Shown: positions 7,591 to 59,968 of the stretch, in pieces
How positions within the stretch are numbered: position 1 is the stretch's first letter
How the letters are laid out: each line of letters starts with the position of its first letter
Made by a program: the position numbers and the translations under genes
Notes under the pieces: generated by a model
Databases searched by the model: none
Told to the model about the DNA's origin: nothing
The model's input: the letters and a program-made list of their open reading frames with translations, nothing else
Source of the DNA: a virus
Length of the DNA stretch: 64,000 nt
Strand: one strand, 5' to 3'
IMG/VR virus record: IMGVR_UViG_3300037245_003639

Positions 7591-7836
7591 GCCAAGAATA
7601 TCACGATCTTTGCACTAAGATGTCAGAATGAACGTTATTTATGATATGGAAACTCAAGATCCAGACGATCTCTTTGCTCTGGCTCTTCTGGCTTGGCATC
7701 CCAGTGACGTTACGTGCTGTAACAGTCACCCCTGGCTCCAGAGACCAAATCGGTATTGTCCAAGCCGCCCTAAAACGCCTAAACTGTCATGCTGGGATAG
7801 GCATTGGAGCTTTCAATCCCGACCATGATTCTGAAA

Positions 7837-10800
7837 TTACACCCTGGTCCTGAGTAACCAATTGCTGGCAGCAGCGGCCATATGTTGTTGAGCCCAATGC
7901 TCCATTGCGATGCGGGATCGCAATTCTTCTTGGACTTTCTCCCATTGAAGTATCTGAGCCACTTGCAGTTCTTTGCGAGTTGATTTATTCTGTCTTACCT
8001 TCTTGACATATGCTTTGTCAGCATTTTGAATGTTCTCAGAGATATGTCGTTTCTTCTGGACCAAATTGAAAATCACTTCGTCCTGAGTATTACCCATAAC
8101 CATATAATGGTTTGTCACAGGTAACTGGCTATTGACTCGGTGAGCCCGCCCTTCTACCTGGTCTGCATCTTTAGGTGTCCAAGAAATATCGTTGATGATA
8201 ACGTTCTGAGTGACGTTGGGAATATCTACTCCAGTCCCTGATGAGAGAATAGTCAAAACCAAAGCGTACATCGTTCCATTTGGAGTTTTGAACTCACGTA
8301 TAGTATGCTCTTTATGGACATCTCCTCCCATGGCCAATCCAACCTCATATGGTTCAATAAGTTCTTTAAGTTTAGTTGCAATCGCTTCTGCGGTGTCTCT
8401 GAAACAACTAAAGACGATTACCTTTTGTCCCGCAGATATAAAGCTAAACGCTTTATCTAAAGTCGCTGGGATCTTTGCGTCTGCAATGGCCATGCGTCGA
8501 GCAGTCAAACGAACAAGAGGTTCGTCTTTATCTTTGTTACTTTCCCGCATCCTGATATACCGACGTTCAGTGGCCAATTCAAGGTCACGTTGTTCCTGAG
8601 GGGTGGCTTCAGACTTTTCTACGTTGGTGGTTAGTTCGGGGATGTTTTCGTTGACTTCTTTTTTGGTTCTCTTTCTATAAACATCGGTCAAAACCAGAGA
8701 AGCTTTGAGAGCGGTAAACTTTTTCATGCGCTCAAAGACAATTTGCTTCAAACTGTTCATGTCGTTATCAATGGGTTCTTCTTCAGAAATTTGCAGAGCA
8801 ACAGCAAATTTATCATCCAAAGATAGATGGTCGAAATCAGGTCGCAGACGTTTCACAACATGACGCAAGAAGTCGCGGGTATTAGCAGGGTCCACTCGAA
8901 GATCTTCCCCCCGCATTTGGATTGTTTTGGAACCAGTATATTGGCGGAGAAAACCCGCCCGTCCCAGATAACCCAGTGGATGCCCAACTGCTAACAACTG
9001 ATTATGTAAGTCGTCAGGAGTATTTGCTGCCGTGGTTGCCGACGCGCCCCATTTGAATGGGATATTCTTGCCCGCTTGGATAACATTGCGAGAAGTAGCA
9101 GCATTAGGGTTCTTCACTAGATGACATTCATCCAGTATCATTACGTCAAAGTTGAGATTACGCATCGCTGCCAATCGTTCTTCTGCGTTAGCTCCCGCAA
9201 TTTTGGTATAGGACATGACCAGCCATTTGGTCATATCTGTCACCTGGTTCACATCTGTTGCGATGGTATCACAGAAGCCCCGCTGTTCAAACTGTTGTAA
9301 TTGACCTTCGTCAGCCCCAGTTGTAGCCAGAATACGCAAACCAAACTGCTCAACAACTGAAGCGGGCGTAAAGACCAAAACTCGACCAGTCGCCAGTTGT
9401 TGATTCCAGCGATTCTTTTCTTTAGTTCTCATGTCGGCAGCAACAATCATTTGCTCCGTCTTGCCAACACCAGGTTCATCACCCAAAATCGCGGACTGTC
9501 GAGAATATAACCAACGAACTCCCTCGGCCTGTAAAGGACGTAAACGATATGGCTCCTCATTGGGTTTATGGAATTCGTATTCCATCACTTCGTTATTGAA
9601 CTGTTCTTCATCAGGTACGTATAAACCCGTCTTCTGATCTCTCAATCTGTGACGAGCCGCACGAGTTTTGTAGTATTTGTCCAAAACTCCATTCAGAATC
9701 TCAGTAACTTGAACGTGTTTGCTGTTTCGCAACTCAGACCCAACTTTCAACACCAGGTCGTCTAAATTACTGGAGACCTGTTTTATGTTCAGAAGAGTCT
9801 GTAGATCACGGTAATTGCCATAAGTCCCTTTGAGATAGAGTCCCTTTTTCATGGCATAATGAGTGCCCGCAGGAGTAATCAACTCCTCACGTTTAGTGGC
9901 AATATCACGCCTACCTTTTGCCCGAGCCTCTTCAGCCATTGGACGAGGTTTGGCTCCCATGATTGGGAAAGCAAAGTTTACTAGATCCTCAATCACTGCT
10001 TTCAAATCTTTGCGTTGTTCTAGTCCTTCAAATGGAATGAAAATGTGGTAATCAGTATCGACTGTGGCATTCTCAAATATCAGATCAAATTGTAAACGAC
10101 GACTGGAAGCAGACTCTTCTTCCAGTTGAATTTGGTCTATAACATCAGTGTTAAATCCATCAGTCTCAAAAACGGATTTGAGCAAAGGGATATCGCTGAC
10201 TTGCAGGTTGGTCAAAACGACTTCGTTGGGGAAACGCTTATCCCGAACAACAGTTACACCTTTTGGCCCCAATTGCTCTCGTATCTTCTGTTGTATCGGA
10301 TTGCTCTCTGCTTTGAATGCTTTCGGATATTCTGGTAGATGACTGCTCCAAGCAATCCCGTAGTTGATATAATCAGGAGTAGATTCTACCACTCGGAAAC
10401 TGGTTACTCTCTGCTGCCGACTTTGAAAAGTCTGAGTTGCCTGCTCTTGTCGTTGCTGAGCCGCCTGCTCTAACTCCTGGGTTATCCTCCGAACATCCGC
10501 TTGTTGGTCCGCCATCGGATGGAAATACATAGAAAGTCCCATCAAAACATCATAAACACTGTTTGCAGATATGAGAGTAGTGCCACTATGATTTAGAACA
10601 TCCTGGGTGGCTGGGGATGTTTGCAGCTTCTGTAAGGCAGACCTAGCTCGATTATCTGTTTCTTCGGGAGTCCTTGACATAATATCTTGCAAATAGCCTT
10701 GAAGGGCTCGTGTAGAAGCGGAAGAAATATATACCTGTAAACTCGGGTCAAATGCCAACTTCATTAGGGCGTTCACAGGATTCTCCCACGTAGGGGCGAT

Positions 10801-10839
10801 AACTGTCTTTGCCATTCGAACTGAATGCGTCCAAACCAT
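7837..10839 (-). CDS. SNF2-family (DEAD/DEAH-box) helicase, about 1000 aa, with an unrecognised N-terminal domain of about 440 aa
   Basis: Walker A LGDEPGVGKT, motif II ILDECHLVKN, helicase-C motif QVEGRAHRVNS; TTG/ATG start ambiguity at 10839-10847. Confidence 0.85.
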   Translation of the reverse strand: MVWTHSVRMAKTVIAPTWENPVNALMKLAFDPSLQVYISSASTRALQGYLQDIMSRTPEETDNRARSALQKLQTSPATQDVLNHSGTTLISANSVYDVLMGLSMYFHPMADQQADVRRITQELEQAAQQRQEQATQTFQSRQQRVTSFRVVESTPDYINYGIAWSSHLPEYPKAFKAESNPIQQKIREQLGPKGVTVVRDKRFPNEVVLTNLQVSDIPLLKSVFETDGFNTDVIDQIQLEEESASSRRLQFDLIFENATVDTDYHIFIPFEGLEQRKDLKAVIEDLVNFAFPIMGAKPRPMAEEARAKGRRDIATKREELITPAGTHYAMKKGLYLKGTYGNYRDLQTLLNIKQVSSNLDDLVLKVGSELRNSKHVQVTEILNGVLDKYYKTRAARHRLRDQKTGLYVPDEEQFNNEVMEYEFHKPNEEPYRLRPLQAEGVRWLYSRQSAILGDEPGVGKTEQMIVAADMRTKEKNRWNQQLATGRVLVFTPASVVEQFGLRILATTGADEGQLQQFEQRGFCDTIATDVNQVTDMTKWLVMSYTKIAGANAEERLAAMRNLNFDVMILDECHLVKNPNAATSRNVIQAGKNIPFKWGASATTAANTPDDLHNQLLAVGHPLGYLGRAGFLRQYTGSKTIQMRGEDLRVDPANTRDFLRHVVKRLRPDFDHLSLDDKFAVALQISEEEPIDNDMNSLKQIVFERMKKFTALKASLVLTDVYRKRTKKEVNENIPELTTNVEKSEATPQEQRDLELATERRYIRMRESNKDKDEPLVRLTARRMAIADAKIPATLDKAFSFISAGQKVIVFSCFRDTAEAIATKLKELIEPYEVGLAMGGDVHKEHTIREFKTPNGTMYALVLTILSSGTGVDIPNVTQNVIINDISWTPKDADQVEGRAHRVNSQLPVTNHYMVMGNTQDEVIFNLVQKKRHISENIQNADKAYVKKVRQNKSTRKELQVAQILQWEKVQEELRSRIAMEHWAQQHMAAAASNWLLRTRV

Positions 10840-10867
10840 AAACAAACCTCATTTACTGATTTTCTAT

Positions 10868-25867: not shown

Positions 25868-26103
25868 CCATTGAAGAAATAGAAGAAAAAGTAATCCAAA
25901 TCGTTAGTGATATTGTAGGAGTTCCTCCTGACTCTCTCAACCGAGAAACATCGTTCAACGATTTGAATGCTGATTCGTTGGACACTGTGGAAGTTGTTAT
26001 GGAGTTTGAAGAAATCTTTATGATAGAAATCACTGACGATGATGCTGACAAACTCCTCACCCTCGGGCAATGTATCGACCATATCAAAGAATTGGTGAAA
26101 TAA
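25864..26103 (+). CDS. acpP: acyl carrier protein
   Basis: 79 aa; DLNADSLDTVEVVMEFEEIF, the canonical DSL phosphopantetheine site and helix II. Confidence 0.8.
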   Translation: MTIEEIEEKVIQIVSDIVGVPPDSLNRETSFNDLNADSLDTVEVVMEFEEIFMIEITDDDADKLLTLGQCIDHIKELVK

Positions 26104-26645
26104 TGACTGATTTTCACATGTTTTGGGGTGGCCCTTTTTCTCAATGGTATCCTTCAACATTTGAAGTAGAGGGAGTCAAATACAACTGCACAGAACAGTA
26201 CATGATGGCCAAAAAAGCACAACTCTTTGGAGATGAAGAAGCCATATCAAGAATCATGGCATCAAATAACCCCAAAGAACAAAAGCGTATCGGACGAACT
26301 GTAAAAGATTTTGTGGCAGAACGCTGGAATGCCATTTCCCGAGATGTGGTCTTCAGAGGCAATATGGCGAAATTCACTCAAGACCCAGCCCTTCAGAGAT
26401 TCATATTGGCGACTGGTGACCAGGAAATCGTTGAAGCCAGTCCCGAGGATACCATCTGGGGAATCGGTCTAGCTGCTGAAGACCCTCTGGCTCAGGATAG
26501 GGCCACATGGAAAGGTACTAACTGGCTTGGTGAAGTTATAATGAGCGTCAGGAGCACAATACGCTCTTTCCCAGAGCCGGAACCCGAGTGTCAGGTGGAA
26601 TTGATCAAACCAGTGGCTGAACGTGAAGTCGTACTGGACCCATGA
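26103..26645 (+). CDS. NADAR / YbiA-like (DUF1768) N-glycosidase-family protein
   Basis: TAATG overlap with acpP; motifs FSQWYPSTF, YMMAKKAQLFGD, AKFTQDPALQRFILATGDQEIVEASPEDTIWGIG parallel E. coli YbiA blocks. Confidence 0.7.
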   Translation: MTDFHMFWGGPFSQWYPSTFEVEGVKYNCTEQYMMAKKAQLFGDEEAISRIMASNNPKEQKRIGRTVKDFVAERWNAISRDVVFRGNMAKFTQDPALQRFILATGDQEIVEASPEDTIWGIGLAAEDPLAQDRATWKGTNWLGEVIMSVRSTIRSFPEPEPECQVELIKPVAEREVVLDP

Positions 26646-28267: not shown

Positions 28268-28296
28268 AGTATACCCTATGTTTCCGCCGCTGTCAA
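28268..28296 (-). promoter_or_regulatory. sigma70-type promoter TTGACA-N17-TATACT with conserved leader
   Basis: Read on the minus strand. Confidence 0.55.
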
Positions 28297-29220
28297 GTTC
28301 TTTTCGGATTTCTCTTCGGGTTTCTCTCTCAGCCCCGCTGTTTCGAGAGTCAATGCTACGGCGTTGCATGTACGATTGAGCAGTTGCATACATGCCTGTA
28401 TCGGCTCGCGGCCCTTGGCCCATGCAGTGATGTATTTGTAAGCCCCGCCTAGGTCAGCGTCACGTTCGTAACCGAGAGCATAGAGCAAAACAGCTCCACC
28501 TAATTCGGCTACGATTTCGCCGTCCGCGTATTCTCTGCTACCCTTGCCCCCTTGTGAATTCATCGCACCTAATCTATCATCGGCAGCATGTACTAATTCG
28601 TGGGCGAATGTCGAGACGTTTTCCACGCCGAGAGCGATAGCGTTTCGGCCACCGCTGTACCACCCTTGGGCGGCACCCGTTTGTCCGCTGTACGCTTGGA
28701 GCGACAGGCCCCACTCTTCGGCCACTTCACGCAGGGGTAGCCCGTCTAGGAATTCTTGGGCTTTGGCGTTGTCGGGCCGTGCCTTTTCCCATAGGTCGGG
28801 TTCGGTTATGTCGGTTTGCTCTAGGCCGAATACGGCCATGCCACGGAAACCGTAGATTATAAATCGGTCTTCGTCTGTACCATCATCGCCTTTGACGCTT
28901 CTCTTTCCCTTACAGGGGGCTAGGATAATGAAGGACTTTTCGCCCTGGCGTACTTGTCGTCCTACTTTTTTCCAGCCCGTCCATTCTGATGGGGGAAGGT
29001 CTACCCATTTCTTGCCGACTTTGTTCTTGGTCCTGCCGTAGGTCATGGCGTCGGACATGCCGCGCAAGGCGACGATCAGTTGATTTGACCAGCTATAGTT
29101 GCTGGCGTTTCGCCCGCCACATTTCAGGAATATGGGAGCGATAGCTTTCGGCAGCGTCCCCGCTTTGAACTGGCCGATGATGATGTCAGCGACGGATTCG
29201 GCTTGACCGTAGAGTTTCAT
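28276..29220 (-). CDS. ardC: ArdC-like antirestriction protein / zincin metallopeptidase (ssDNA-binding N-domain plus HExxH C-domain)
   Basis: About 314 aa; FAHELVHA, then GEIVAELGGAVLLYALG, parallel ArdC HELxH ... EELVAELGAAFL; ATGA overlap with the upstream gene. Confidence 0.7.
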   Translation of the reverse strand: MKLYGQAESVADIIIGQFKAGTLPKAIAPIFLKCGGRNASNYSWSNQLIVALRGMSDAMTYGRTKNKVGKKWVDLPPSEWTGWKKVGRQVRQGEKSFIILAPCKGKRSVKGDDGTDEDRFIIYGFRGMAVFGLEQTDITEPDLWEKARPDNAKAQEFLDGLPLREVAEEWGLSLQAYSGQTGAAQGWYSGGRNAIALGVENVSTFAHELVHAADDRLGAMNSQGGKGSREYADGEIVAELGGAVLLYALGYERDADLGGAYKYITAWAKGREPIQACMQLLNRTCNAVALTLETAGLREKPEEKSEKNLTAAET

Positions 29221-29561
29221 GCCAGAATCTCCACGTCCGCATCGGACAGACCTACACCTACCGACTCGGCCCACTCGGCGGTTGTTTTCGGCCAGTCCGT
29301 TGGCAAGCGATTCGAGTCAGGTACCATCGACGCAAAACGCAGAGGCGTTCGGTGTTGCAGTGGGTGAGCCCACCACTTTATCTCGGAATCGTCGGGCTGG
29401 TTGTCGGCAGGTACTACCAGGATAAGCATACCGGCGGGCAACATGCGGCGTTCGCCGGGATTGCCATGAACTGTCTGCTGGCGAGTCACTCCGATAGTAC
29501 GAATAACGTGGTTTTCGGGGCAGCGTCGGACAATCTTCTCACAGTCGCGACATAGAATCAT
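29217..29561 (-). CDS. hypothetical protein, 114 aa, N-terminal CxxC
   Basis: First gene after promoter 29585-29613; translationally coupled to the ardC-like gene. Confidence 0.45.
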   Translation of the reverse strand: MILCRDCEKIVRRCPENHVIRTIGVTRQQTVHGNPGERRMLPAGMLILVVPADNQPDDSEIKWWAHPLQHRTPLRFASMVPDSNRLPTDWPKTTAEWAESVGVGLSDADVEILA

Positions 29562-31071: not shown

Positions 31072-31129
31072 ATCCTACTCCAATGCTTCGCGTAGCACCG
31101 CTGTCTCACTTGAGATCAGTTCCTTAGTA

Positions 31130-31209
31130 TGGAGCCAGTAGGACTCGAACCTACAATCACCTGTATCTCGCGAGAAATACAGACGGCTTCCCAATTTGCC
31201 TATGGCCCC
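31130..31209 (-). tRNA. tRNA-like gene (80 nt) with canonical acceptor, D and T arms but a non-canonical, extended anticodon region
   Basis: 5' GGGGCCA pairs with 3' TGGCTCC (one G-U); D-loop AATTGGGAA; T-arm GTAGG-TTCGAGT-CCTAC; the central 22 nt are CTGTATT-TCTCGCGA-GATACAG (7-bp stem, 8-nt loop); no CCA encoded; own promoter at about 31270-31300. Confidence 0.45.
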
Positions 31210-31318
31210 AGGGGGCGGCGTGTCTCAGTCCGTCTGTTTGGAATGCCCATTCGGCCAGACAGAGCCGAGCGTCACGCCGCGCGATTCACAGCGTAGTATA
31301 CTCGCCCTTTCCACCTTG

Positions 31319-33703: not shown

Positions 33704-33900
33704 TTGAAGAGTTTGCGAATTTTGTAATTTTGTAACTTTGTAACTGTTTCGCAATTTCGCAATTTTGCAACTTTGTAACTGTTGCAACTTTGCAAGTATT
33801 TGCAACTTTGCAACTTTGCAACTTTGCAACTTTGCAACTTTGCAACTTTGCAACTTTGCAACTTTGCAACTTTGCAACTTTGTATTTGCAACTTTGCGAA
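33700..33900. repeat. microsatellite: 8-bp unit TTGCAACT (about 13 pure copies at 33796-33896, degenerate copies upstream)
   Basis: Read directly; the ORF-track products with KVAKLQSCK repeats are artefacts of it. Confidence 0.85.
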
Positions 33901-33935: not shown

Positions 33936-34012
33936 CACTTGAGATCAGTGTAAAAAGTAATTTCGTGTAGGTAATTCCGTGTTGCAATTTCGTGTAGCAC
34001 TGATCTCAAGTG
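33936..34012. repeat. inverted pair of the 15-bp element (F 33936-33950, R 33998-34012) enclosing three AATTYCGTGTWG iterons
   Basis: Read directly. Confidence 0.8.
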
Positions 34013-36018: not shown

Positions 36019-36113
36019 ACCCTACAGCAGATTCGGCAGGTTGTCAAGTTCTTTTGCGAGAAAACTCGACTAACCGGCCAAGCAGGAGGCCAGCGTCCAC
36101 TTGAGATCAGTGT

Positions 36114-36445
36114 TCATCCTGAGTTGTCAGCCCCCTCCATAGCAGTCGTGACAGCGTCGGCAATCTTAGCGGGGTTTGCGTTTCTGATAAGCGGATACAA
36201 CGCCACTAGCAGGGATTCCACGCCGTCGGTAAAACCGTTAGCAAACAGACGGTCTCTCACGTCGCATTCGAACGTGCCTTGCAGCTCGCTCTTGGCATCT
36301 TGGATGCTGGCTGTGCTACCGTCGCATTCGTAGCAACAGTTATCCTGCCCGCAATGGTCGCAGGTCTGACGAGGCAACGCCGATGCGATGCTATTCTCAA
36401 CCAACTCGATTTCGACATTCTGTGGATATACTCGAAATTTCACGC
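36114..36445 (-). CDS. hypothetical Cys-rich protein, 110 aa (GTG start)
   Basis: SD GGAGGA directly after the 15-bp element at 36455-36469; stop followed by the element at 36098-36112. Confidence 0.45.
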
Positions 36446-36605
36446 CAGTCCTCCACTTGAGATCAGTGCTCTTCCTACTCTACGCCACTTGAATTCTGTC
36501 GGCATCACGAGTCCTCAACTCCTGAAACGGTAGTTTACCTGATACCGGCTGGCTTGTCAAGGGAATTATATGTTCATTTTATGAGAAATTTATTCAGAGT
36601 TGGGG

Positions 36606-36634
36606 TTGACAAATGCTTGACAGTGTTGTATACT
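36606..36634 (+). promoter_or_regulatory. plus-strand sigma70-type promoter TTGACA-N17-TATACT inside the minus-strand block
   Basis: Read directly. Confidence 0.5.
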
Positions 36635-36640
36635 TCATTC

Positions 36641-36800
36641 TGTTGAGTGAATGGAATGGCCCATAGGAGGCCGAAACCCGCGCAGGAGAATCGCCTATGC
36701 GAACCGGAAACACCTGGTCAAGTTCCTAATTATTGGTCAACATCGCGCAGACGTACCGTTCGACATACGGTCCCGGGTCCAAACCCGGGGCCGTTTTTAT
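36641..36800 (+). ncRNA. candidate sRNA of about 160 nt between promoter 36606-36634 and terminator cccggg-tccaaa-cccggg plus T-tract (36772-36799)
   Basis: The only ORF, 36651-36839, runs through the terminator and has no SD. Confidence 0.4.
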
Positions 36801-36891
36801 TTCGTGTTGCAATTCAGTGTTAGCACTGATCTCAAGTGAGTGATCCAGGGTGACAGATTATGTCACCTTCGACGACCTCGTCATCTGCTTA

Positions 36892-36929
36892 AATAAAAAA
36901 ACCGCCAGCAATCTTTCGATCACTGACGG
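36892..36929 (-). terminator. rho-independent terminator (gccgtcag-N14-ctggcgg plus U7) after gene 36946-37512
   Basis: Read on the minus strand. Confidence 0.5.
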
Positions 36930-36945
36930 CATAAAGTATTCGGTG

Positions 36946-37512
36946 TTAGTCTTCGGGTATCAGATGCGTCACATCCAATTCCTGGTCGAACAGGATTGTC
37001 GCGCATGTCGCAGGCAGCATGTCAGTATCCAGGTCGAGGTGCATCGCCGAGGCCACATCCTCGCAGATACTATCAGGAGCGTGAAAGTCCTCGTGGACAG
37101 CAACAAAGAATGGGAAGACGTAGACCCGTTCGCCTTCCTTCCGATCCAGGTAACTCAAGTCAAGGGCAGCGTCGATACGGGCCAACAGGGCTTCCGAGTG
37201 GGCGATTGCGTCTCTGTTTCTTTCGCCATCGTCGTGTCGAGCAGGAGAACTAGGAAGTTCCAACTCCGCTTGTGCGCTGTCGATGCGGCCCTCCACATCC
37301 TCCCGATACTCCAGAACCAGTTTGTGAAGCTCCACGATGAGATTGGGCTGGGCAAACAGGTCAGCCCATTCACCGTAATTCTCGTCCCCTGGGCGACGGA
37401 TTTCTTCGACGTTGCCATGTATGTCTCGGCGACGGATTTTACCGTCATCATCGGGGAACTCGATTACCCCGCCATCGGAAAGCTCGAAACCACCTTCGGA
37501 GAATTTGCCATT
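36946..37512 (-). CDS. hypothetical acidic protein, about 188 aa (GTG start after AAAAAGGAG)
   Basis: Promoter TTGACA-N17-TATATT at about 37533-37562; the longer ORF-track start overlaps the -10. Confidence 0.45.
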
Positions 37513-37575
37513 CACTGTGAACTCCTTTTTGACCACTGAAGTAATATACCACATCTGAAGTGAATTGTCAAGGGG

Positions 37576-39927: not shown

Positions 39928-40011
39928 GTCGGTATCTTACTCTATTCTGGTTGAATTGTCAAGCGGAACTTTGTTCTATTTCGTGTTGCAATTCCGTGTT
40001 GGAATTCCGTG

Positions 40012-40674
40012 TTAGGCAGCGGCTTCTACTTGCTTGCGGACTTCATCGTCCACGCTATCCAGCATCCCGTTTTCCGTAGGGTCGCTGCCATAGAAACCCC
40101 AGCATGAATCGCCAGTTTCCCCTCTTCCGCCGCATTCGCCACAGGGCGGCTTGCGGACGATGTAGCCGTAGGTATCGCCCGCGAGAAACTGACTGTAGAT
40201 TTCCACTTCGGCAACCAACGCTGCCGTTATCCGCGCGAGCAATTCGTCGGTCAGAAATTCAGGGTTGCTTTCCGGACAGAATTCTTCGATAATCCTCCGC
40301 TTTGTGATGTAAATCCAACCGACTTGCCCCCAGTCCCATCCCGCCGAATCACAGGCGCGAAACGCATCGTTGCTGGTCCGCAAGGCAAGGCCGCTATGGT
40401 CCATGAGAAACAGCGGAAGTATCACTTCGATTCCGTCGCTCACATGCTCTTCCTGGCATGTATGAATCGAATGCAAGTGGGCCTTCAATCCATCCCAGTC
40501 CTTGAAGTCTTCGGAGCGATAGTCATGTTCGTCGCCCAGATTGTAGCGACCGTGGAAGCAAACCATCGTTCCGAGGTTATCCCAGTCACGGGGACTTTCG
40601 GGGTCAGAGTCAGAGTGAATCTCAAACTGACCACCATTGGAAAGTTGAATCGTCTGAATCGGGTCCAATTTCAT
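40012..40674 (-). CDS. hypothetical protein, 220 aa
   Basis: The TTTTCCGCGGAAA box lies between the -35 and -10 of its promoter (40726-40738). Confidence 0.5.
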   Translation of the reverse strand: MKLDPIQTIQLSNGGQFEIHSDSDPESPRDWDNLGTMVCFHGRYNLGDEHDYRSEDFKDWDGLKAHLHSIHTCQEEHVSDGIEVILPLFLMDHSGLALRTSNDAFRACDSAGWDWGQVGWIYITKRRIIEEFCPESNPEFLTDELLARITAALVAEVEIYSQFLAGDTYGYIVRKPPCGECGGRGETGDSCWGFYGSDPTENGMLDSVDDEVRKQVEAAA

Positions 40675-42764: not shown

Positions 42765-42887
42765 TTTGTTTCTCCTATTGACCCAACTATACATTGCCAT
42801 TGGTGGTTTGTCAAGGATAATTTTCAGTGCGGGAAATTCCGTGTTGCGAATTTCGTGTTGAGGCCCAGCCCCGGGCTAACATTAATC

Positions 42888-46055: not shown

Positions 46056-46997
46056 TCAAGCAAAAACTGGGTGATGCACGGCCAAATGTTTTTGACCATT
46101 CGGAGTTATCATCCGTCCCCGTGATGTCCTGTCTATCATCCCCAGACTCAACAAAATCGGTTCCACGGTCTCTTCAATCACTTCAACCTGTTGACCCAGC
46201 CGACCAGCAATTCCACCCACACCACGGGGACCAGGAGTATCAGCCAATATCCTAAGATACTCAACATGCAACTCTTCAAGACCAATCGGGTCTATTCCTT
46301 CCAACCTAATGGCCAACTGACAATGAACCAACGTCAATTCAGAAGCATGGGAAGCCAAAAAGACATTGCGAACTTTCTCGGCCAACCTTTTAGCTTGCCG
46401 AGGAATTCCTAAACAACGTTTGGCTATGTACTCCAGGTGTGGATAATTCGTGTCAACGCCTTGAGATTCAAAATACTTGTGAAGGATGGTTATCAGGTCG
46501 TTGACTGAATACCTGCCCACTCGCCAGATGTTACCGAACCGTTTTACAAACGATGCCTGATCCAATTCGTCTCGTCGAGTAGTGGCAGCCATCAAAGTAT
46601 ACGGAGCCAAACCAATGGTTTTAGTTGGCAACAATATCCGAGGACTCTCTCGATCCATAGGATAATAGAAGACTTCTTGTTGTGGCTCGGAAAGTCTTTG
46701 AACTTCATCGATGAAGAGCAGCAAAGGTTTGCCTGCTTGAATAGCAGCTTCGTTAGCAGAAAGTAAGCGTTGAATGATTTGGTCCCGCGTCTTCAGTGCA
46801 GCAGCTTCAGTTACAATCGAGTAGTAACCGAGTTCTTCTGCAATGGCTAACGCAAGCGCAGTCTTACCAGTGCCACCAACCCCTTCGAGCAGAGTATGTG
46901 GGAAGACTTCACCTGTCTGACGACAGGCCTCGATATCGATATGGGCGCGAGCTTTCTCACGCCGCAAACCGATCAGTTTATCTAAACCTTTTGTCAT
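46056..46997 (-). CDS. ruvB: RuvB-like AAA+ ATPase (Holliday-junction branch-migration motor family)
   Basis: LLEGVGGTGKTALA, LLFIDEVQRLSEPQQEVFYYPMD, TLMAATTRRDEL, GIPRQAKRLAEKVRN, RTSRGRMIT parallel E. coli RuvB blocks. Confidence 0.8.
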   Translation of the reverse strand: MTKGLDKLIGLRREKARAHIDIEACRQTGEVFPHTLLEGVGGTGKTALALAIAEELGYYSIVTEAAALKTRDQIIQRLLSANEAAIQAGKPLLLFIDEVQRLSEPQQEVFYYPMDRESPRILLPTKTIGLAPYTLMAATTRRDELDQASFVKRFGNIWRVGRYSVNDLITILHKYFESQGVDTNYPHLEYIAKRCLGIPRQAKRLAEKVRNVFLASHASELTLVHCQLAIRLEGIDPIGLEELHVEYLRILADTPGPRGVGGIAGRLGQQVEVIEETVEPILLSLGMIDRTSRGRMITPNGQKHLAVHHPVFA

Positions 46998-52093: not shown

Positions 52094-52152
52094 TATTTCG
52101 TGTTGGGTTTCATGTTCCTGGGAATTTCGTGTTGGGTTGAATTTCGTGCTGG
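52094..52152. repeat. three AATTTCGTG(T/C)TGG iterons
   Basis: Copies at 52094, 52123 and 52140. Confidence 0.7.
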
Positions 52153-58602: not shown

Positions 58603-59968
58603 AGCTACATTTTATCTGAGAGGTTGTTGATTGTCAATGATTTTCATCCGCGGAAAATGGATGGCGGATGATTTTGTGTCCCTGAGTTCTCCAGCCCTCG
58701 ATGTACTCATTGAGTTTATCGTCGGGGTTTGCGGATATGTCTCCAGCGACAATTTGATACTCAGCTACTTCGATGCTGAGCAGACCTCGTTCATCCTCGG
58801 CCACGTCTTCTATGCCAATGATGGAATAGAAGTTCATTGGTTTGCCTTCAAATCCTTCTTGTTGTTTTAGGTGGATAGTTGCCATATCAGAATATTGTTC
58901 CTCCACAACAGAAGTAGATTGACAACATAACAATGGCCATGAAGATGAAAGTGACCCATGGGGTTCTTTTGGGTTTTGGTTGAGGCCAATGGCCTGTCTC
59001 TTGCATCATTTTGATGTACTCGTCTTCTACGCCTTTTTGATGCGCATGCAAGCAATCTTGGCAGATGCCAACATGTAGATAATCAGGAGAATAGTTGCCG
59101 CAATGACGACAGTAGCCAGCCATTAGGTTTCACTCGCTTCATTCTCATCGTCTACCCTGAAAATCATGTTCAATTCGTCGAATGGGTCAGGTGGCGGTCG
59201 GGTTTCAGGGTCATAGTGAAACACTCTACTACAGTGGGGTGATTCGACAAGCAACCGCTGGCCATTATCTCTGATGGAGCAAGCTCGAAAGACGCAGCCA
59301 TCGATATGACGGGCAGTCGAGGCGTATTTCATGGCCTTTTGTCGGGCGTCTGCATAGGTTAATTCATCGGCCACCGCTGCTCCAATTGCTGACGTTTATC
59401 TTTGAGCATTTGTTTGGCCCAGTTTTGTAGGACAACATCTAGTTCACATATGGCCTGCCCCAGGATGTCGTTGATAGCATCCAGTTCTTTTTCAATCTGG
59501 CGGTAGATTTCGTTGCCGCGGATTTTCTGGGTTCTCAGTTCATGCTCTGAGAGACAGACGAAGACGTAAGTTCTACCCATCCAGAAGGTCATTTGTTGTT
59601 CCAATAGACTGAGACGCTGATGCTGTTCCACAGGACAATCACCCACCCGAAACCAACCAGAACCCTGTTGACGATTTCCGGTTGGCCGGTAATGGGGGTG
59701 ATCCGCAGGATAACGAATCCCACCGCAACAGCAATGGCACTGACTAAAACTTTCCAGTTCACTAGTGTTTCCTCAGCCTAAGTTTCATCTCTGTCGTTAT
59801 CAGGGTTAAACGACTCTGGTCTTGACTGGTGAATTCAATGGGCTGATTCGCAGCCGTGAGCATTTTGGCTACGAGTTCAGCCTCAACCAATCTGCGATAT
59901 TCTGCCAACAGGTTTGGGCCTGCCATGTTACGAATTTCTTTGTAAGAGGCTGGAGTTCTGGCCATCAC

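Follow-up and report, generated by a model that had tools for sequence, protein, structure and literature searches.

The window, which is the whole stretch of 64,000 nucleotides that we analysed, carries a promoter and an intrinsic terminator on the plus strand. This unit is located between a minus-strand terminator (36901-36930) and a minus-strand promoter (36532-36560). The features of the unit and its borders are the following. The letters A to G stand for the window (A) and for the lineages of six metagenomic relatives, which are described further on.

36532-36560, minus strand: sigma-70 promoter P(-), TTGACA-17-TAAACT, back-to-back with P(+)
36561-36605: A/T-rich spacer, 45 bp between both -35 hexamers
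36606-36634, plus strand: promoter P(+), TTGACA-N17-TATACT, 11/12 consensus matches
36638-36653, plus strand: conserved 5' block TTCTGTTGAGTGAATG, kept in A and C and partly in E
36642-36803, plus strand: predicted RNA of ~160 nt, with predicted start and 3' end
36658-36672, plus strand: hairpin GGCC-CATAGGA-GGCC, with counterparts in C and D and absent in E
36684-36729, plus strand: AGGAG SD (36684-36688) and a 10-codon mini-ORF
36713-36735, plus strand: conserved CCTGGTCA, then U/A-rich TTCCTAATTATTG; clear in A, C and E, loose in B, F and G
36767-36803, plus strand: intrinsic terminator with a 12-bp stem and a CCAA loop, then TTTTTATTT
36798-36823, plus strand: two AATTYCGTGTTG-type repeats, directly 3' of the terminator
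36824-36838, plus strand: 15-nt element CACTGATCTCAAGTG in plus orientation
36901-36930, minus strand: convergent terminator of the upstream minus-strand gene 36946-37554

P(+) has its -35 hexamer TTGACA at 36606-36611 and its -10 hexamer TATACT at 36629-36634, with a spacer of 17 nt. The promoter is thus found where the preliminary description had placed it. About 130 nt further on stands the terminator hairpin, ACGGTCCCGGGT-CCAA-ACCCGGGGCCGT (36767-36794), in which 9 of the 12 pairs are G-C. A terminator had been described here with a cccggg/cccggg core. It is present, but its stem is longer than this core. Among all terminator-like sites between 27.5 and 46 kb, it ranks first.

The unit had also been described as the only plus-strand one inside a minus-strand block. 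In agreement with this, P(+) is the single plus-strand promoter-like site with at least 11/12 matches in 27.5-64 kb. The minus strand has 21 such sites, and about 35 with at least 10/12. By our own estimate, ~0.2 plus-strand 11/12 matches are expected by chance in 36 kb. For this reason the match of P(+) alone is not significant, and the case rests on conservation in relatives.

We infer that the RNA starts 7-8 nt past the -10 hexamer and ends inside the T-tract. Its predicted fold has an energy within the usual range (z = -1.6), reached or surpassed by 12 of 200 shuffles. The segments CATAGG (36662-36667) and CCTATG (36694-36699), previously presented as paired, are there, but their pairing is not kept in the relatives. 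In the window, the base of the terminator stem has a competitor, an ACCG/CGGT hairpin at 36755-36771. The RNA has one copy in the window according to an nhmmer profile, and one per genome stretch. No paralogue was found in the 64-kb window.

On the other side of the spacer, P(-) drives the next operon, with the 109-aa gene 36114-36443. The spacer includes a conserved GTTCATTTT (36572-36580). According to the preliminary description, AATTYCGTGTTG copies and the 15-nt element flanked the unit. All of them lie 3' of the terminator, the AATTYCGTGTTG copies as a good one (36798-36809) and a degenerate one (36812-36823), and lineage C is arranged alike. Upstream of P(+) there is only a degenerate AATTYCGTGTTG-like copy, ATTCAGAGTTGG (36592-36603). 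Lineages B, E and F present good AATTYCGTGTTG copies at the spacer position. The convergent terminator keeps its stem CCGCCAG...CTGRCGG in A-E, also where the upstream gene differs. Opposite the RNA, the only ORF has 39 aa, is unconserved and lacks a promoter.

Two other observations concern the borders. A perfect 17-nt inverted repeat (36454-36470 / 36822-36838) encloses both promoters and the predicted RNA, with 351 nt between its arms. Similar inverted pairs elsewhere have arms merely 25-47 nt apart, and the left arm (36454-36470) is not at the corresponding position in lineages B or C. Likewise, a 229-aa ORF on the plus strand (36850-37539) starts just past the plus-strand 15-nt element and is antisense to the entire 202-aa gene 36946-37554. 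It has no family match, is not kept in the relative L037 and is probably spurious.

The gene array and its repeated elements

The mobile element from which the window comes is uncharacterised. A Logan contig of 6.9 kb matches the window with 100% identity, and the 245-aa protein that neighbours the unit is also present on a 403-kb contig. The minus-strand array consists of small, densely packed genes, and a Pfam domain is missing from 70 of its 75 ORFs. Among the other five are a RuvB-like ATPase, a thioesterase and an ArdC-type MPTase-PolyVal protein. The recognisable genes of the array and of its surroundings include these:

7837-10845, minus strand: SNF2-type helicase, 1002 aa
17548-19524, plus strand: FtsH-like AAA-plus-M41 protease
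26070-26645, plus strand, in the adjoining plus block: NADAR
28276-29274, minus strand: ArdC-type MPTase-PolyVal zincin
46056-46997, minus strand: RuvB-like AAA+ ATPase

In the relatives, the array ends with ArdC-N/MPTase, and convergent NADAR and 4HBT genes come next. This synteny suggests a putative anti-defence or establishment region.

The minus strand between 27500 and 64000 has ~35 near-consensus sigma-70 promoters, about 1 per kb. Their TTGACA is perfect or near-perfect, the spacer is N16-17, and many have TATACT. Most of the small operons of the array are closed by intrinsic terminators.

The 15-nt element CACTGATCTCAAGTG has 27 copies in the window between 27813 and 51536, against 0.2 expected. 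Examples are 36098-36112, 36454-36468 and 36824-36838. It is also present in L037, L041, L042, L044-47 and L050, and across lineages it varies at position 8 alone, between C and G. Single copies are nearly always on the coding strand, just before the SD or past the stop codon. Copies on the plus strand are nearly always members of inverted pairs; 30-60 nt separate the two copies, and the loops between them are unrelated. Mixed C/G pairs exist, which suggests that the arms are recognised singly instead of pairing with one another. In the G variant, the reverse complement includes TTGACA.

The 12-nt repeat AATTYCGTGTWG has 17 copies between 32595 and 55025 of the window, against 1.5 expected, and all are on the plus strand (for example 33959-33997, 39977-40014, 42835-42860 and 52094-52151). 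They form tandem sets with a 13-14-bp spacing just upstream of minus-strand promoters, and in L048 they lie inside promoter spacers. The repeat looks like a candidate operator for a global regulator. No DNA-binding protein for it was identified. A further motif, AGGTCAAAGC, stands 8-10 nt past the -10 of six minus-strand promoters (28252, 30101, 30574, 31684, 34899 and 35723) and is followed by a GAAAGGGA-type SD. It is kept in lineages C and E, in E as AGGTCAAGC. The body of the predicted RNA carries AGGTCAAAGC-like TGGTCAAG and TGGTCAAC.

The array also contains a tRNA-like gene on the minus strand (31129-31210) that scores 50 bits against the Rfam tRNA model. Its anticodon loop is enlarged by an insertion of 11 nt, and no anticodon is assignable by ARAGORN. 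The gene has its own promoter (31322-31295) and a leader of ~80 nt, and a 15-nt element lies right past its 3' end. Finally, 22.6 tandem copies of the octamer TTTGCAAC occupy 33712-33897 and overlap an ORF with KVAKLQSC repeats. They are directly downstream, in the minus-strand sense, of an inverted 15-nt pair that encloses three AATTYCGTGTWG. This could be an iteron-like or binding array.

The unit in seven lineages

We retrieved the relative L037, a JGI contig, with the inverted-pair pattern of the 15-nt element. The remaining relatives were retrieved through homologues of the 245-aa neighbour protein. For each lineage, the coordinates of the promoter pair, its strand, the -10 hexamer of the reverse promoter (P(+) in the window) and the length of the predicted RNA are the following:

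Lineage A, the window: 36555-36634, plus strand; TATACT; RNA ~160 nt
Lineage B, L037, identical to L044-46: 7734-7812, plus strand; TATACT; RNA ~80 nt
Lineage C, L041: 1653-1574, minus strand; TATACT; RNA ~175-200 nt
Lineage D, L042: 9093-9015, minus strand; TATATT; RNA ~265 nt
Lineage E, L048: 7565-7473, minus strand; TAGAGT; RNA ~160 nt
Lineage F, L050: 12147-12068, minus strand; TATAAT; RNA ~90-100 nt
Lineage G, L051: 2934-2868, minus strand; TATCAT; RNA ~110-125 nt

The back-to-back promoters are present in 7/7 lineages, in the form TGTCAAGG, ~45 bp, TTGACA-N17-TAnnnT. The six relatives carry the pair in the same kind of gene array, and a short opposite-strand RNA is predicted in them. The reverse transcript ends in a GC-rich hairpin with a T-tract in B, C, D, E and G, five of the six, and in a long hairpin without a T-tract in lineage F. 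The terminators of B, D and G are differing GC-rich hairpins with T-tracts at the same relative place. An alignment of A, C and E shows that the terminator stems differ in sequence and still pair: both sides have changed in 7 of the 12 pairs. The 15-nt element lies 3' of the unit in B, C, D, E and G, with the variant CACTGATGTCAAGTG in C-G.

Lineage F presents a peculiar arrangement (L050, 12068-11960, minus strand). The -35 of its reverse promoter overlaps a 15-nt element, TTGACACTGATGTCAAGTA, and its RNA is a single hairpin with a stem of ~22 bp and no clear T-tract.

The RNA bodies were also compared. Against shuffles, the alignments of the bodies reach z = 10 for A-C, 8.2 for C-E and 3.2 for A-E. 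The blocks that they have in common include the 5' TTCTGTTGAGTSAATG, CCTGGTCA, the U/A-rich TTCTAATTATTG and GGAGA-N3-4-GCCTATG. An 18-mer, ACGTCGGCGCGACCGCGA, is identical between C and E. Lineages A, C and D have in common a GGCC(C)-loop-GGCC hairpin near the 5' end, which reads GGCCC-CTCAGGA-GGGCC in C and GGCC-CTTGGA-GGCC in D. The flanking upstream proteins of A, B, C and D are merely 43-51% identical over their full length, which indicates that the RNA sequence is under constraint. Besides the terminator, no convincing conserved internal helix was found in the A/C/E comparison.

The conservation of the body is not uniform. The first 9 nt past the -10 hexamer are identical in A and B, and about half of the body is lost in B (80 nt vs 160 nt). 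A profile made from the A, C and E bodies has no match to the bodies of B, D, F or G. Conservation is therefore stronger in the promoter and terminator than in the RNA.

Coding capacity, database searches and targets

Three plus-strand ORFs of at least 30 aa overlap the unit (36647-36823, 36651-36839 and 36733-36843). The preliminary description had named 36651-36839 as the only one, which is incorrect. It had also stated that this ORF has no SD and runs through the terminator, and both statements are right for the long ORF. Nevertheless, a mini-ORF with a good SD exists and recurs in the relatives. In the window, its ATG is at 36697, 8 nt 3' of AGGAG, and the TAA at 36729 closes the peptide MRTGNTWSSS.

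The long ORF has 62 codons in A, 34 in C, 19 in D and 3 in B, and most indels between lineages have lengths that three does not divide, which shifts the frame. Therefore, no protein is conserved. The ORFs of the unit have no Pfam or PHROG matches, and no frame is conserved in length and sequence together with an RBS. A small protein gene, either the 62-aa ORF 36651-36839 or the 58-aa ORF 36647-36823, consequently has a negligible probability. Both ORFs are present and an AUG stands at the same 5'-proximal position in A and C, but neither ORF has an SD, both extend through the terminator, and in E the AUG is directly followed by UGA.

The mini-ORF behaves differently from the long ORF. GGAGA-N3-4-GCCTATG is kept in A, C and E, with mini-ORFs of 10, 13 and 10 codons respectively. 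Lineage D has 3 codons, G an ATG-TGA start-stop, and B none. The SD and AUG recur, and the peptides are unrelated between lineages. This recurrence suggests that ribosomes may bind the RNA, which is atypical for a purely non-coding RNA.

A search in Rfam had been advised for the unit, and it matches no family. With Rfam 15 at the gathering threshold, the whole window gives only the tRNA at 31130-31209. With E up to 10, no family (CRISPR-DR models included) matches 36400-37000, L048 7150-7600 or L041 1300-1700. The permissive matches are chance ones of the terminator type, with 10-17 bits against thresholds of 35-70. Likewise, there was no match in GenBank phages or PLSDB plasmids for the region (blastn/megablast) or for the conserved 245-aa neighbour (tblastn). 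IMG/VR was scanned with patterns for the 15-nt element, the promoter, the inverted pair and the C/E block and with a protein profile, which yielded nothing beyond chance single matches. In GTDB genomes, neither the pair pattern nor the promoter pattern was found, and a literature search for the repeat sequences gave unrelated primer matches only.

No significant pairing of the RNA was found with 75 start regions or with the whole 64-kb window, and whole-RNA duplexfold scans were uninformative. The conserved 15-nt leader cassette, which had been put forward as a target, forms duplexes with energies equal to those of shuffled RNAs. The best in-window complement, at ~59.6 kb, has -38.2 kcal/mol. 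It looked strong against the start-region set, but not against window-wide shuffles. Because 2 of 37 of these reach the same energy, the complementarity is probably due to chance. The place (59560-59700, minus strand) encodes a small two-helix hydrophobic protein (…VLVSAIAVAVGFVILRITPITGQPEIVNRVLVGFGWVIVLWNSISVSVYWNNK) and complements the SD/AUG block of the RNA with 23 pairs, 4 of them G-U.

Several known classes were considered and rejected. A GGA in the first hairpin loop prompted the idea of a CsrA sponge of the CsrB/RsmZ type. The six RNAs have 20 GGA, whereas dinucleotide shuffles would give 27.2, and a search of the 75 array ORFs gave no CsrA, Hfq or ProQ domain. A single-strand promoter of the Frpo/ssi type does not fit: the single-stranded DNA folds of 36500-36800 have z = -1.6 (plus) and -1.4 (minus), and the -10 has no partner. 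For a type I toxin-antitoxin system, there is no small hydrophobic toxin ORF at the locus. Finally, a cis-antisense or counter-transcribed RNA (OOP, ctRNA, FinP or Sok type) is contradicted by the lack of overlap with a minus-strand gene; the RNA may overlap a read-through RNA. A generic trans-acting sRNA is not among the rejected classes: the unit has its own promoter, its own terminator and no conserved ORF, and no significant target was found in these 64 kb of a contig of at least 403 kb.

Possible roles of the RNA

From the comparison of lineages, the ~160-nt unit is a real, conserved transcription unit for a predicted small, essentially non-coding RNA. The independent non-coding plus-strand unit of the preliminary description is thereby upheld: the arrangement recurs, the terminator stems covary, the A, C and E bodies align and no long ORF is kept. 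Its transcription, its action in trans and its sites of interaction are what we infer from these sequences. A protein-coding role and a chance co-occurrence of signals appear effectively excluded. For chance, one 11/12 match per 36 kb of one strand is not improbable (~0.2 expected). However, the arrangement of promoter-like and terminator-like sites is kept in six other lineages and the terminators covary in A, C and E, which leaves this explanation practically no probability.

We consider it an even chance that the RNA is a trans-acting regulatory or decoy sRNA of a new family. The host sigma-70 RNA polymerase would start at P(+), at ~36642, and the strong intrinsic terminator would stop it at ~36800, with an RNA of ~160 nt. 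The RNA itself would be the product. It would be made alongside the array genes and would act in trans as a regulatory or decoy RNA. Contact might take place through conserved, probably single-stranded blocks: the 5' UUCUGUUGAGU, the RBS-like GGAGAAnCGCCUAUG and the U/A-rich UUCCUAAUUAUUG that adjoins the terminator. It is best read as an RNA family not described before, which a clade of uncultivated mobile elements carries within a long array of co-oriented small genes, each with its own consensus promoter.

Its strongest competitor is a promoter-level device in cis, which has perhaps one chance in a handful. P(+) would control or insulate its neighbours, and the RNA would be no more than a by-product whose synthesis soon terminates. 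This might work through supercoiling or RNA-polymerase coupling with P(-), through a shared operator, or through collision or antisense pairing with upstream read-through. Best conserved, in 7/7 lineages, are indeed the two promoters, the spacing of the pair and the spacer motif GTTCATTTT, and AATTYCGTGTTG operator-like repeats adjoin P(+) in B, E and F. The identity between A and B reaches +9 and then falls abruptly, the body of B is halved, and those of B, D, F and G resist alignment. That the terminator is never lost is what one would expect if antisense transcription must stop. Nevertheless, the A, C and E bodies align well above shuffles and have identical blocks of 10-18 nt, unexpected in a by-product. 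Besides, no other operon junction in 36 kb is built in this way.

It is rather unlikely that the RNA serves a mini-ORF. In such a case, ribosomes would load on an ORF of 1-13 codons, and translation would stabilise the RNA or modulate the terminator, as in leader-peptide attenuation. In this way, the RNA would regulate the passage of antisense read-through to the repeats, the 15-nt element and the upstream gene. The correctly spaced GGAGA-N3-4-GCCTATG of A, C and E points in this direction, with ORFs that end in the same U/A-rich block. So do the 3-codon and start-stop versions of D and G, and the hairpin at 36755-36771 that competes with the terminator stem base in A. However, this alternative pairing is not kept in C or E, neither the peptide sequence nor the frame is conserved, and B has no ORF. 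Downstream, nothing recognisable exists to be regulated, save the unconserved 229-aa antisense ORF.

Also to be weighed is an anti-defence decoy that an anti-defence island would express early, such as an RNA anti-CRISPR (a solitary repeat unit) or a mimic of another kind. The array has the ArdC-type MPTase-PolyVal protein, the adjoining plus block has NADAR, and the relatives carry ArdC-N. Moreover, the C/E block GTCGGCGCGACCGCGA-loop-GCGGTGAAA(C) resembles a CRISPR repeat by eye (GTCG start, hairpin, GAAAC end), and RNA anti-CRISPRs (Racrs) are promoter-plus-repeat units in mobile elements (PMC10651486). On the other hand, neither CRISPR-DR nor any other Rfam family matches with E up to 10, the block has diverged in the window copy, and the repeat-like pattern is absent from IMG/VR. 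We regard this explanation as highly improbable. A wider version has a slim chance: the RNA may be an early decoy that disarms a host system, either as a solitary CRISPR-repeat-like unit (GTCG...hairpin...GAAAC, in C/E) or as an RBS mimic that titrates an RNA-binding factor of the host or of the element. If true, the rapid lineage-specific remodelling would reflect an arms race. The RNA would then be a node of an undescribed control system, with the 15-nt CACTGATSTCAAGTG, the strand-fixed AATTYCGTGTTG operator-like repeats and dozens of consensus promoters.

Returning to the trans-acting sRNA, we compared the unit with known systems. The stand-alone sRNA genes of phages and plasmids, such as prophage DicF and IpeX, have in common with it a sigma-70 promoter and a GC-rich terminator hairpin with a U-tract. 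Further likenesses are the length (80-270 nt), the U/A-rich stretch before the terminator, the conserved 5' end and the lack of a conserved ORF. In contrast to these genes, the unit has no Rfam sequence or structure match, and its body is unusually plastic between lineages. Lambda OOP, P22 Sar, repABC ctRNA, FinP and Sok are also short RNAs against the gene direction, with a strong promoter and a terminator. These RNAs overlap the mRNA that they control, whereas the RNA of the unit overlaps no gene, only a hypothetical read-through RNA. The oxyS-oxyR and gcvB-gcvA type resembles the unit in its back-to-back promoters with a short conserved control region. Conversely, the neighbour behind P(-) is no conserved regulator; the genes past P(-) vary by lineage and have no DNA-binding domain matches.

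Two systems of mobile elements are similar in their context. Racrs are solitary repeat units with their own promoter (PMC10651486). The unit is likewise small, non-coding and near anti-defence-type genes, but it has no demonstrated CRISPR-repeat similarity, and the repeat-like block is present only in C and E. The leading regions of conjugative elements contain anti-defence islands and Frpo single-strand promoters (PMC11541004). A one-strand array of small genes with ArdC-type proteins is common to both. However, the promoters here have an ordinary double-strand consensus, without an Frpo-like hairpin. This likeness remains an analogy because neither oriT nor relaxase was seen.

As it stands, the unit is a well-supported, functionally anonymous candidate sRNA. 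It is no surprise for specialists; the wider regulatory architecture of the array is the unusual part. Its promoter, its RNA of ~160 nt and its conserved blocks, which can be mutated, make the unit a handle on the control of the array. As the only opposite-strand unit in a one-directional array with an ArdC-type gene, it is a natural candidate for a timing or host-manipulation RNA. Provided that it is transcribed as predicted, it would stand for a new family of small RNAs, found in a clade of large mobile elements that are entirely uncharacterised.
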